64,000 nt of DNA, from assembly GCA_963764225.1 (NCBI GenBank), contig CAVXRL010000008.1:126362-190361 (forward strand), in the 5' to 3' direction. Shown piece by piece: positions 40,651 through 57,094 of the stretch; the stretch's first letter is position 1; each line of letters opens with the position of its first letter. This stretch comes from an uncultured Actinomycetes bacterium (GTDB lineage: Bacteria > Actinomycetota > Thermoleophilia > UBA2241). The notes below the pieces were generated by a model. It made no database searches and was not told the origin of the DNA. It saw nothing but the letters and a program-made list of their open reading frames with translations. The translations under genes were made by a program, and so were the position numbers.

Positions 40651-41700
40651 TCAGGACTGCGGGAGGCCGGACCCGCGCGCCGGCGCCGAGGGCGGCGTCG
40701 CGGTGCTGCCGTCCCAGGAGTCGCCGGAGTGCAGGTGGACGATGAGTGTGTAGGAGCCGGAGGTCCCCGGCGTGTAGGTGTACGCACCGGGGACCAGGCC
40801 GGGCTGCATGGGGGCTCCGCTGCTCGGGTCCTGCGGCCAGTCCGGGTGCGCGGTCCCGAGTGCGCCCGTGGGGGAGACGTCGACCACGCGCGGCAGCGCC
40901 CCCGCGTGCCGGAGCGCCCACTGATCGACGTAGCCCGAGAGGATGCGCCCGCTGCGGCGCAGGATCTCGTCCTCGAGGTTCGTGAGCAGTTGCTGCCAGG
41001 GGCTGGAAGCCATCGCTCCCGAGAGGACGTAGTCGTGCTTGAGCGCGCGGTGAAGGCGCAAGGTATAGGAGGAGCGGTCCGGAGAGACGCTGTACGAGAA
41101 CGAGCCCTTGCTCTGCCCCTGCCGCATCACGTAGTGGTCCCACGGGTCGCTGGGCCAGTACCGGCGGCGCGGCTCGAGGCCCACCGGCCCGTCGGCGCGC
41201 ACGTCGGCGGGCAGCGGGTAGAGGCCGTGGTGCGCCCGCGCGTACTCCTCGATGTACTCACGGATGAGGTTGGCGCCCTCCTCACCGCGGTGGTCGTAGG
41301 CGAGCATGACGATGCGCGGCATGCCTCCCGAGACGACGTACGTGCGGCCGCCGTCGAGGTACCCGACGAGGCGGTAGCGGCGCCGGTCGGGCGCGACCGT
41401 GTAGCGGTAGTGCCCGCGGGTGGTGCCCGGGAGCATGGCCGCGCCGGTCCACGGGTCGTCCGGCCACCAGGCGCCCAGACGCCCGGGCTGCACCCTCCGC
41501 GCCCGCGGGTACAGGAAGAAGCGTGTGCCGGCCTGACGGTCGATGAGGCCGCGCAGCGCCATGATGCCGTCGCGCATCTGATCGTCCGGTGAGGTGGCGC
41601 GAGCCGTCGCGCCGGCGCTCGCGCAGAGCAGGACCGCCGCGAGGAGTGCAAGCCCGAGGATGAGGGTGGTGCGCCGGATCATGTGCGTGGTGGTGGCCAT
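40651..41700 (-). CDS. Secreted protein with three tandem ~85-aa pseudopilin-like repeats.
   Basis: Signal peptide MATTTHMIRRTTLILGLALLAAVLLCASAGA. Repeats carry WPDDPW…YRYTVAPD…YRLVGYLDGGRTY, WPSDPW…FSYSVSPD…YTL…, and WPQDP…PM…YTYTPG…YTLIVHLHSGDSW. Confidence 0.55.
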   Translation of the reverse strand: MATTTHMIRRTTLILGLALLAAVLLCASAGATARATSPDDQMRDGIMALRGLIDRQAGTRFFLYPRARRVQPGRLGAWWPDDPWTGAAMLPGTTRGHYRYTVAPDRRRYRLVGYLDGGRTYVVSGGMPRIVMLAYDHRGEEGANLIREYIEEYARAHHGLYPLPADVRADGPVGLEPRRRYWPSDPWDHYVMRQGQSKGSFSYSVSPDRSSYTLRLHRALKHDYVLSGAMASSPWQQLLTNLEDEILRRSGRILSGYVDQWALRHAGALPRVVDVSPTGALGTAHPDWPQDPSSGAPMQPGLVPGAYTYTPGTSGSYTLIVHLHSGDSWDGSTATPPSAPARGSGLPQS

Positions 41701-41836
41701 TCCCTCCGCAGTGTGGCGGCGCGTACCGGTCATTTCAAGCGCGCCGCACGTTCCCGGCCGGCGTCTCCTGCTACCATTCGCCCTGCGCGCCCCGGAGCCT
41801 GCGGAGTCGCGCGAGGATCCGTGGCGATGAGGGGAG

Positions 41837-43228
41837 ATGGCGGTGGAGGCGAAGATCCCGACCCGGATGGGCGACGGCTTCATGGTCGAGATGACGCGCA
41901 GCGAGCTGCGCGCCGATCTGGAGGAGGCGACGCGGGCGGCGGCGAGCAAGGCCAAGGTGCCGCCGCTCACGCAAGACGAGCTCGACCACCTGCTGGACAT
42001 CTACGCCTCGCGCGCGGCGTTCACCGCAGTCGACATCGGCGACCAGGTGGTGCTCAGCTGCGACGGCGGCGGCAGCAAGATGACCGGGACCGACCTCCTC
42101 GACCTGCTGGAGAGCGAGCAGCGCCTCGGCCAGGACATCCTCGAGCTCTGGCACATCGAGTACAGCTACAAGGCGATCAAGACGATCCTGCCGTTCCAGC
42201 AGCAGGTGATGCAGAACGTGCAGCTGATGTGCACGGCGCCGGTGCAGTACGGGGCGCAGCCCAACCTGGCCTTCTACAGCAAGCCCGACGGCCCCGCGGA
42301 GAACTGGTTCGAGCTGCTGCCGCGCGGGGACATCGCCGGCGCCCGCGCGGCCATCGGCGAGGCCATGGACCACGCCACCAAGGACTTCATCTACGTGGGC
42401 GAGGGCATGCTGGACGCCGGCGCCGACGGCATGGACTTCGACACCACCGGCGGCGCCGGCGACGCCGACTTCTTCAGTACGCTGCGCGCGGTCCGCCACC
42501 TGCGCGAGAAGTACCCGCACGCCGGCATCGAGGTCGGCATGGCCGGCGAGTTCGTCATCGGCGTCCACGGCGAGCTGGAGTGGGAGGGCCGCCGGCTCGC
42601 CGGGCTCTGGCCCAGGGAGCAGCTCGAGGTGTGCCAGGACGCCGGCGCCACGATCTTCGGGCCGGCGGTCAACATCCGCACCGGCAAGAGCTGCGCCTGG
42701 AACGCGGCGTACTCCATCACCGTCACCAAGCCGTGCATGGACGCGGCCCGCATCCCGGTGCACCCCAACGTCGGCGAGGGCGTCGGCGGCGTGCCGGTGA
42801 ACGGCTACCCGCCCGAGGACGCCGCTTCCCGGGCGGCCAGGGCGCACGTCGACATCCTCAAGTGCGACGGGTTGTAGGTGGGCTCGGGTGACTCCAGAGG
42901 CATGGACGTCACCCACGCGCTCGCCGCTGGCATGGGCGGGATGCGCACGGCCGGAGACCTGGTCGCGCGCATGCAGATGTCACGCGGGATGCGCCTCCCC
43001 GAGGCCAAGAAGTACGTCGCGGAGAAGCTGGGCTGCACGGTCAGGGACCTGAGCGACAGCTACGCGATGGAGCAGATCCGCGGCGAGAAGGGTCTGGGAA
43101 GGATCCTCGACCACTCCAACCTGCACCCCGGGGAGCCGAACGCGATGACGGCGAAGTTCCGGATCGCCGAGCTGCTGGACGTGCCGGTCAGCTCGGTGGA
43201 GCGTTTTCGGGAGCTGGCGGGTCTGTGA
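41837..43228 (+). CDS. mtbB: Dimethylamine:corrinoid methyltransferase MtbB, with an in-frame amber codon (TAG at 42875-42877) at the pyrrolysine position.
   Basis: MAVEAKIPTRMGDGFMVEMTRSEL…DFDTTGGAGDADFFSTLRAV…AGIEVGMAGEF…HVDILKCDGL-TAG-VGSGDSRGMDVTHALAAGMGGMRTAGDLVARMQMSRGMRLPEAKKYVAEKLG… ORFs 41837..42877 and 42878..43228 share a frame. The total is 463 codons with UAG at codon 347 (compared with Pyl356 in M. barkeri MtbB). Confidence 0.85.
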
Positions 43229-56314: not shown

Positions 56315-56428
56315 CGGTACCCTCCACAGCCGCCGGCGTCACGGCGCCGGGCCGCGCCGGCTGCCGCCGGCGCGATTCTCTCACAACTCCGCTCCGGCGC
56401 CGACGGTGGCGCCGGAGCTAGGGCAGCG

Positions 56429-57094
56429 TCACTGGCCGATGGTGCTGCCGTCCGAGAGGTAGGCCTTGAGTGAGTACTTCTTGCCGCCGTCGAGCTGCCT
56501 GTAGCTGAAGTTGCCGGTGCTCTCTTCCTGGACCATGGGGCCGTCGGTGAACAGGTTCACCGGCCAGCCGATCATCTTGGCGAGCACGCCGTCCGGCATG
56601 ACCTCCTTGGCCGGCGGGTACTCCTTGCCGCCGCCGGCCTTCCACATCGCGAGCCCGCGCCGCAACACCAAGAGGCCGTAGGCGGCCGCGCCGTCCTTGT
56701 ACGCCTGCTCGGTCACCCGCGAGAGCTCGATCGTCTCGGGCGTCTTGAACATCTCGCCCGTGAACTCCAGGCCCAGCTTGTCCTGCGACCGGGACTGGAT
56801 GCGCACCGTCACGACGTGGGTGTCGATCACGAGGTCCTGGCCGTGCTGCTTCACCTCGCCCATGGGCTGATCGGGATTGGACTTGACCGTGTACGTGTCG
56901 CCGTCCTTGGCGATCTGCAGCAAGGTCATCTGACCGCCCTGGTCGCCTCCGATCCAGTAGCCGACGAGGGGGTCGGTGCTCGCCGTGGTCCCGCCGCCGC
57001 AGGCGGCGAGCGTCACGGCGAGCAGCGCGGCCGCGACGAACGCCGCGAGCGCTCGGGCGACGAGCCGTCCGGTGGATCGTCCTCTGTCAGCCAC
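56429..57094 (-). CDS. Lipoprotein with a GTW-type domain and a C-terminal pseudopilin-like domain.
   Basis: Lipobox LAACGGG. …PLVGYWIGGDQGGQMTLLQIAKDGDTYTV…EQAYKDGAAAYGLLVLRRGLAMWKAGGGKEYPPAKEVMPDGVLAKMIGWPVNLFTDGPMVQEESTGNFSYRQLDGGKKYSLKAYLSDGSTIGQ*. Confidence 0.5.
   Translation of the reverse strand: MADRGRSTGRLVARALAAFVAAALLAVTLAACGGGTTASTDPLVGYWIGGDQGGQMTLLQIAKDGDTYTVKSNPDQPMGEVKQHGQDLVIDTHVVTVRIQSRSQDKLGLEFTGEMFKTPETIELSRVTEQAYKDGAAAYGLLVLRRGLAMWKAGGGKEYPPAKEVMPDGVLAKMIGWPVNLFTDGPMVQEESTGNFSYRQLDGGKKYSLKAYLSDGSTIGQ

Follow-up and report, generated by a model that had tools for sequence, protein, structure and literature searches.

In a 64-kb stretch of DNA from an uncultured soil actinobacterium (class Thermoleophilia, UBA2241; contig CAVXRL010000008.1, positions 126,362-190,361, forward strand; G+C about 71%), which is called the window here, a module of about 90 amino acids (aa) is repeated in four genes, A to D (Table 1). 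The module resembles the head domain of type IV pilins and of the pseudopilin GspG. A class III signal is the defining feature of type IV pilins, which have been regarded as inseparable from their assembly machines (PMC4471445). We consider it probable that proteins A-D are pilin heads without the alpha1N helix and the class III signal, displayed (B, C and D) or released (A) as non-polymerising domains of the cell envelope.

Six copies of one module and their family

We searched all six reading frames of the window with a hidden Markov model (HMM) built from the six copies, and exactly these six were found (three in A and one each in B, C and D) with domain E-values of 1e-31 to 1e-38; the next match had an E-value of 0.7. 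The first-pass annotation of this DNA had counted six copies in four genes, and that count stands. A second HMM, built from 95 foreign representatives together with window copy B, matched the six copies at E-values of 2e-19 to 4e-30 and gave no match beyond them in the 64 kb. In an all-versus-all BLASTP, the C-terminal regions join the four proteins: B and C share 38% identity over 90 aa (E 5e-14), C and D 35% over 91 aa (E 3e-13), and A and B 46% over 59 aa (E 3e-10), B matches D at E 5e-10, and each of the three repeats of A matches B, C or D.

The module had at first been described as a unit of about 50 aa, preceded by a pilin-like helix in three proteins only. It turned out from the six-copy alignment that the N-terminal helix is present in all six copies, and because every copy has its own helix, the conserved unit is about 90 aa rather than 50. 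This helix has an invariant Asp near its start and ends with "YP" in five of the six copies. It is followed by "WP-x-(N/D)-P-(W/F)-T-G-x-P-M", then by "G-x-(Y/F)-x-Y", and finally by "Y-x-L-x-G-(H/Y)-L-S-x-G". Recent dispersed duplication, or spread by a mobile element, was considered for these copies and rejected, since they are only 22-38% identical pairwise and each is matched by orthologues of its own that keep a fixed synteny (for instance P0122, P0125-P0130, P0132 and P0164 for gene A, and P0131, P0133, P0134, P0138 and P0242 for gene D). All four are old paralogues, conserved separately from one another and each at its own fixed place in the chromosome.

For the wider family, a profile was searched against 1.84 billion cluster representatives (clusters at 50% identity), which gave 660 proteins at E <= 1e-3, including 53 at E <= 1e-30. 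These proteins contain one, two, three, four or six modules, the last of which lies within 12 residues of the C-terminus in 103 of 148 representatives. Five architectures occur. Tandem modules may stand behind a signal peptide; a module may come after a lipobox and a "GxW" beta domain, or after a tail rich in acidic residues or proline, a transmembrane (TM) segment and a beta domain; it may lie some way beyond a zinc ribbon and a TM segment (such as P0234, P0239 and P0253); or a pilin-like TM helix may lead directly into it. Protein B alone has 236 homologues at E <= 1e-3, among which there are no precomputed Pfam domains. They are annotated as hypothetical, except two labeled "pseudopilin PulG" (JGI) and one labeled "uncharacterized lipoprotein". 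The species-representative genomes, searched with an alignment of B orthologues, gave 39 loci, all from Thermoleophilia or unclassified Actinomycetota metagenome-assembled genomes (MAGs) except one "Deltaproteobacteria" bin; at the nearest locus, CAVVGY010000007, B is 93% identical. The module defines a real family that Pfam has no model for, and in the literature on pseudopilin-like lipoproteins and on pilin domains without class III signals we found no account of it.

Relationship of the module to pilins

Five independent lines of comparison converge on a likely derivation of the module from pilins. The first-pass annotation had claimed a resemblance to the core of GspG and type IV pilins, and this was borne out by the intermediates P0201 and P0217, an HMM of GspG, hhalign and a match to EpsG. 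For the Pfam family PF08334 (T2SSG), whose gathering cut-off is 21 bits, P0201 scores 23.9 bits over profile positions 9-95 of 108 and is the sole relative above the cut-off. P0197 and P0285 lie just under it (19-20 bits), and sub-threshold T2SSG matches were seen in 5 of 36 and 7 of 96 relatives. In a search of all PDB sequences, P0217 matches Geobacter PilA (7tgg, 2m7g and 9egp) at E-values of 9e-4 to 1.5e-3, with further pilins lower in the list. This alignment spans the "KGF" cleavage site, the alpha1N segment "LAAIAIP" and alpha1C, up to "YP"; as it runs from the TM helix into the helix of the module, the latter corresponds to pilin alpha1C. Seven representatives keep such a TM helix, "...G(F/L)P(V/I)WAI...LAAIAIP(M/A)F.NQRDKA", continuous with the module helix.

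When a family profile of 96 sequences was compared with the PDB, its best match was EpsG (3gn9), and GspG proteins made up four of the seven matches, with a best E-value of 0.35. The register places "Y.LDN..YP" with "WA.DH..YP" and, in the best match, also "LP.DPWG" with "WP.NPWT". A profile from the six window copies alone gave only chance-level matches against PDB sequences. With hhalign, the family aligned in register with five real GspG heads over 48 columns (E 0.0026, probability 11%), and the probability was low against a single GspG sequence. The reciprocal test used an HMM of the five GspG heads against 7,420 sequences, comprising 172 non-redundant modules and 7,248 composition-matched decoy translations of open reading frames (ORFs) from the same genomes. 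Of the 30 best-ranked sequences 27 were modules, including all of the first 17, and the best E-value was 5.6e-4 (hypergeometric P 3e-42).

The structure of the trimmed module B (residues 37-127, deep alignment) was predicted by AlphaFold with a pLDDT of 97.6 and a pTM of 0.87. The model has a helix (4-28), a short helix (37-40) and strands at 66-70, 76-81 and 87-89, in which the helix packs on the three-stranded sheet. Among Foldseek alignments of at least 84 columns, the best ones are almost all pilins, none of them significant: C. difficile PilA1 (TMq 0.53, probability 0.63), Thermus PilA4, TcpA, EpsG 4lw9 (TMq 0.53 over 102 columns) and C. difficile PilW. The modelling check proposed at first reading thus gave a predicted topology of pilin type, with pilins as the best long matches, but the Foldseek matches are without statistical significance. 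The two outcomes named there as speaking against a pilin relationship, a non-pilin fold and an HMM that matches a named, unrelated Pfam family, did not arise. The full-length B model (pLDDT 82.8) builds the signal peptide as an extension of the helix, and its weak Foldseek matches to full-length pilins were not counted as support, because a long helix alone could yield them.

It may be asked whether the module is a small alpha/beta domain with no relation to pilins, whose likeness to them is convergent and whose weak matches are compositional. The Foldseek E-values, none significant, the profile E-value of 0.35 against the PDB and the 11% probability of hhalign would all agree with this. However, the T2SSG match of P0201 and the PilA match of P0217 agree in register, the GspG HMM prefers the modules to decoys of matched composition from the same genomes, and pilins account for all of the leading long structural matches. 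We regard convergence as quite improbable.

Export signals and membership of type IV filaments

According to the first-pass annotation, the four proteins have Sec or lipoprotein signals or an internal TM anchor, and no class III signals. This agrees with what we found. B begins with MRR and a hydrophobic stretch before LTAC with Cys24, and D has LAAC with Cys32. The lipobox was taken as [LVI][ASTVI][GAS]C after a positively charged n-region and a hydrophobic h-region; by sequence both signals belong to class II, and both proteins are predicted lipoproteins. Cys24-Gly25 of B is invariant in 42 orthologues, and lipoboxes also occur in the D-type relatives P0242, P0241, P0259 and P0277. In A, a hydrophobic segment covers residues 7-33, with neither a lipobox nor a prepilin motif. 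C consists of an acidic, proline-rich, putatively cytoplasmic tail of about 50 residues with "TRVMP" repeats, one TM segment, a beta-rich domain, a Pro/Thr/Ser linker and the C-terminal module. Neither strict nor loose prepilin patterns were found in A, B, C or D or in the 148 family representatives, and there were no N_methyl Pfam matches among the window proteins and relatives scanned. A-D are homologues of pilins which have no class III signal and therefore stand outside the class of type IV filament subunits; they also stand outside Pfam T2SSG as it is now thresholded.

A check for a prepilin peptidase or pilus ATPase had also been proposed. Scans of window ORFs at about 0.6-33 kb and 37.5-57.5 kb, and of the called genes of loci L002 and L003, gave no Pfam family of prepilin peptidases, assembly ATPases or platform proteins. 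The idea of a pilin fold re-used as a non-assembling surface domain is supported as regards the homology and the missing class III signals; the non-assembly itself we infer, because class III signals are missing and the scanned window ORFs include no pilus genes.

The competing possibility is that A-D are cryptic pilins or pseudopilins, which are still processed and built into type IV filaments by a pilus or Com-type machinery whose genes lie elsewhere in the genome. Their head domain is homologous to GspG and PilA, some relatives outside the window keep "G-F-P-V-W-A-I...AAIAIP", which aligns with the prepilin cleavage site and alpha1N, and the machinery scans covered window ORFs and neighbouring loci. 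Nevertheless, a Gly-Phe-Thr-Leu-Ile-Glu-type motif and Glu5 are absent from the four window proteins and the 148 representatives, and the lipoboxes of B and D are canonical, that of B ending in an invariant Cys. The modules of A, C and D are internal or C-terminal to other domains, so there is no free alpha1N. Besides, the leaders of the alpha1N-like members have 60-85 residues, compared with 6-26 in pilins (PMC4471445). We give this possibility very little credit.

For the preferred reading of A-D as exported pilin heads, several points count on the other side. A-D themselves have nothing relevant at Pfam or NCBIfam thresholds and no T2SSG match at E <= 1, so that the proposed homology to pilins is drawn from intermediates and from consistent sub-threshold matches. 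Foldseek of the module B model against the PDB gave no significant match (best E 0.46, TM about 0.5), and the predicted sheet has three strands, where the published account of pilins gives a beta-meander of four (PMC4471445). The calls of signal peptides and lipoboxes were made by pattern and hydropathy only, and the machinery scans were confined to parts of the window and to syntenic loci.

In the mechanism that we propose, the repeated unit would be a divergent, trimmed head domain of a type IV pilin or GspG pseudopilin. Its parts would be alpha1C, with "YP" at the end of the helix, then an alpha-beta loop that carries "WP-x-N/D-P-W/F-T-G-x-P-M", and last a small antiparallel sheet with "Y-x-L-x-G-H-L-S-D-G" as its closing motif. 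This Thermoleophilia lineage would have lost the class III signal together with alpha1N, the hydrophobic helix of polymerisation, and would use ordinary export instead: B and D would be lipid-anchored, A would leave through a Sec-type signal, and C would be bitopic with its module at the extracytoplasmic C-terminus. The modules may then sit on or just outside the cytoplasmic membrane as binding or scaffolding domains that need no pilus assembly machinery.

Compared with GspG, PulG, EpsG and XcpT (PF08334, T2SSG), the elements of the module come in an identical order: an amphipathic helix with "(D)N..YP" at its end is followed by a loop, by "P-x-D/N-P-W-G/T" and by two strands, which end in "h-x-L-x-S-x-G-x-D-G" in GspG-type proteins and in "Y-x-L-x-G-H-L-S-D-G" in the module. 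It differs in its shorter alpha-beta loop, in about ten residues ("x-P-M-x-x-G-x-x-x-G") inserted after the DPW-like motif and, in the window, in the lack of alpha1N and of a class III signal. The acidic C-terminal loop "..DDIGNW" of GspG, PulG and EpsG, which is the Ca2+ site of GspG, is also absent, since B, C and D end 4-6 residues past "SDG" or "SNG". The host actinobacterium is presumably single-membraned, and so would have no type II secretion system. In the case of Geobacter PilA-N (7tgg and 2m7g), P0217 aligns from "KGF" through "LAAIAIP-F" and alpha1C to "YP" (E 9e-4), but the window proteins lack alpha1N entirely, and the alpha1N-like relatives have Pro2, no Glu5, a TM helix that is longer by five residues and leaders 60-85 residues in length.

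A polypeptide with more than one pilin fold is known from C. difficile PilJ, a dual pilin fold (PMC4471445), and extra domains within one polypeptide from the modular pilins PilB and PilC of Streptococcus sanguinis (PMC8179133). Those proteins keep the class III signal and enter pili, whereas here up to six modules follow a Sec-type signal. The sugar-binding proteins of the Sulfolobus bindosome likewise uncouple the pilin signal from the pilin head (PMC4471445), but as a mirror image: there, non-pilin binding proteins gained class III signals, and here pilin heads would have lost them.

Gene neighbourhoods and wider meaning

Table 1. Positions of the module genes, their parts and nearby features in the window
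Feature	Position	Strand	Description
mttB	38956..40551	+	Pfam MTTB; in-frame TAG at 40060-40062, frame continues
Hairpin, terminator-like	40584..40624	-	18-bp stem with 16 G-C pairs; just 3' of A, between convergent mttB and A
Gene A	40651..41700	-	ORF and translation; N-terminal hydrophobic signal, then three tandem modules; predicted secreted protein
Module A3	40711..40980	-	Family HMM domain, E 1.5e-25
Module A2	41017..41301	-	Family HMM domain, E 1.8e-23
Module A1	41329..41595	-	Family HMM domain, E 7e-23
mtbB	41837..43228	+	Pfam Dimeth_Pyl; in-frame TAG at 42875-42877, frame continues
Gene B	43866..44249	+	Predicted 127-aa lipoprotein: signal peptide, lipobox LTAC (Cys24), short linker, one module
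Module B	43986..44243	+	Family HMM domain, E 1.8e-22
Gene C	50803..51884	-	Predicted bitopic membrane protein; ORF unbroken from 51762 (50803..51762, 319 aa)
Module C	50809..51081	-	Family HMM domain, E 4e-30
TM segment of C	51532..51615	-	Residues 50-77 of the 319-aa ORF; hydropathy scan
Gene E	54270..54953	-	Zinc ribbon, TM segment, beta-rich domain as in C and D; no module
Gene D	56429..57094	-	Predicted 221-aa lipoprotein: lipobox LAAC (Cys32), N-terminal beta-rich "GYW" domain, C-terminal module
Module D	56441..56707	-	Family HMM domain, E 2e-19

The module genes had been described as scattered among purine biosynthesis genes. This is right for D only (purB, purE and purD); A and B lie by mttB and mtbB, which are methylamine methyltransferase genes, and C lies between aroA and a pair of genes for an extracytoplasmic function (ECF) sigma factor and its anti-sigma factor. 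Two conserved blocks were recognized. The first runs mttB (+), A-type genes (-), mtbB (+), a gene for a 175-aa membrane protein (-), B (+) and a gene for a 383-aa protein, and is kept in about 30 species. The second runs ridA, ridA, D, purB, E, a GNAT gene (confirmed in the window only), aroA, C, ECF sigma and anti-sigma, and is seen in the window and at loci L037, L038, L040 and L041; the pair aroA-C is kept even where the sigma pair is missing.

The first block raises the possibility that A and B are accessory envelope proteins of methylamine use, which capture or present the substrate together with mtbB, mttB and the 175-aa membrane protein (43188..43715). Besides the conservation of the block in about 30 species, this could draw on two more distant Thermoleophilia loci, L035 (2292..5700) and L036 (2213..5700), where mtbB-mttB directly follows a B-type lipoprotein gene of like orientation and the membrane protein gene is still adjacent; their arrangement hints at a functional linkage. 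On the other hand, A and the membrane protein are on the strand opposite to mtbB and mttB in the window, the neighbours of C and D are unrelated (aroA, ridA and purB), Pfam and NCBIfam scans detected no known transporter or binding-protein family, and the linkage may merely mirror limited rearrangement within one clade. A role of this kind seems unlikely to us.

For C, the second block suggests an extracytoplasmic sensor or partner of the sigma and anti-sigma pair (50045..50626 and 48570..50048), as most loci show aroA, C, sigma and anti-sigma in this order. This is put in question by L015, L021, L024, L025, L027 and L028, in which aroA-C occurs without the sigma pair at that place, and by the gap of 176 nucleotides (nt) between C and the sigma gene; we think such a partnership improbable.

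The number of modules at the A locus, the interval between mttB and mtbB, varies from two to nine or ten among species. The window has three (40711..41595), most relatives have five (a three-module and a two-module gene), and nine or ten are found at L004 (2583..5718), L008 (2233..5641) and L031 (2334..5780). The MAG whose B is 93% identical to that of the window has nine or ten modules at this locus compared with three in the window, which is either a rapid change in copy number or a collapse of repeats in one assembly. The hairpin 3' of A may terminate both mttB and A; the minus-strand side alone was scored, and its T tract is weak.

Both mttB and mtbB contain an in-frame TAG, that of mtbB at position 354 of the Dimeth_Pyl profile. 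In Thermoleophilia MAGs the TAG and its flanks ("CDGL-TAG-VGSGDSRGM" and "YIAGA-TAG-(A/G)DSKL") are conserved at 31 of 31 loci for mtbB and in 20 of 20 genuine matches for mttB, which represent about 30 species. This conservation in both genes is a signature that indicates pyrrolysine decoding in this Thermoleophilia clade. A survey of 2022 recorded PylRS in two Actinobacteria only (PMC9630628), and we found no report of pyrrolysine decoding in Thermoleophilia in the literature. ARAGORN found no tRNA in the window and therefore no pylT, and no pyl genes were found there.

Gene C had been placed at 50803..51884. The ATG at 51884 is correct, but it lies in a different frame from the rest of the gene, with an apparent 1-nt frameshift near 51797-51800. 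The N-terminus read from this ATG is "MDDESTG...", and the orthologues (351-365 aa; 362 aa at L002) start with "MDEETTG..." (P0206 and others). Apparent 1-nt frameshifts are also found in two other conserved genes: 44321..45512 (+), which encodes the 383-aa protein 3' of B and is intact at L002 and L003, and 4196..5792 (+), an FGGY kinase broken into FGGY_N and FGGY_C ORFs. All three are probably indel errors of a long-read assembly, not pseudogenes. In the tail of C (about 51690..51860, -) there are three or four copies of "(D/E/A)(E/A)TRVMP", a motif which recurs in the orthologues P0206, P0210, P0216, P0265 and P0273 and may serve for docking or phosphorylation.

Gene E was examined as a seventh copy and rejected, since BLASTP and the six-copy HMM show that it shares only the N-terminal beta domain with C and D (C-E 31% over 77 aa, E 5e-5; D-E E 0.003) and has no module; it has Zn_ribbon Pfam matches. 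The shared part is a second beta-rich, putatively extracytoplasmic domain that begins with "G-x-W", at approximately 51193..51507 in C, 56720..56974 in D and 54354..54641 in E. It has no Pfam match in these three proteins, and many family members pair it with the pilin-like module. Upstream of D there are two tandem ridA-like ORFs (57087..57491 and 57623..58039, -), the first overlapping the start of D by 8 nt. Pfam Ribonuc_L-PSP was matched by the first, and the second was assigned only by its similarity to the first; the order ridA-ridA-D is kept in other species.

A bolder reading is a release of the pilin head into a Sec/Lsp-exported domain throughout Thermoleophilia, followed by its expansion, in which tandem chains would act as covalently linked "single-chain filaments" or envelope scaffolds, possibly tied to methylamine use through the conserved linkage with mtbB and mttB. 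We hold this to be rather unlikely. If it were true, pilin heads would be used independently of any machinery, with up to six modules per chain and, in a close relative, nine or ten within a single locus of 3 kb.

In practical terms, the module is an unmodelled domain for Pfam and InterPro, and a model of it would annotate conserved "hypothetical" envelope proteins in a common class of uncultured soil bacteria, a gain that is modest until the function of the family is established. For the biology of pilins, several hundred clusters keep the pilin head without a class III signal, as predicted lipoproteins, bitopic membrane proteins and tandem secreted arrays. The family would thus be a natural experiment on what a pilin head can do alone, and its intermediates, with alpha1N-like TM anchors but no Glu5, show a possible route of escape from the pilus machinery.

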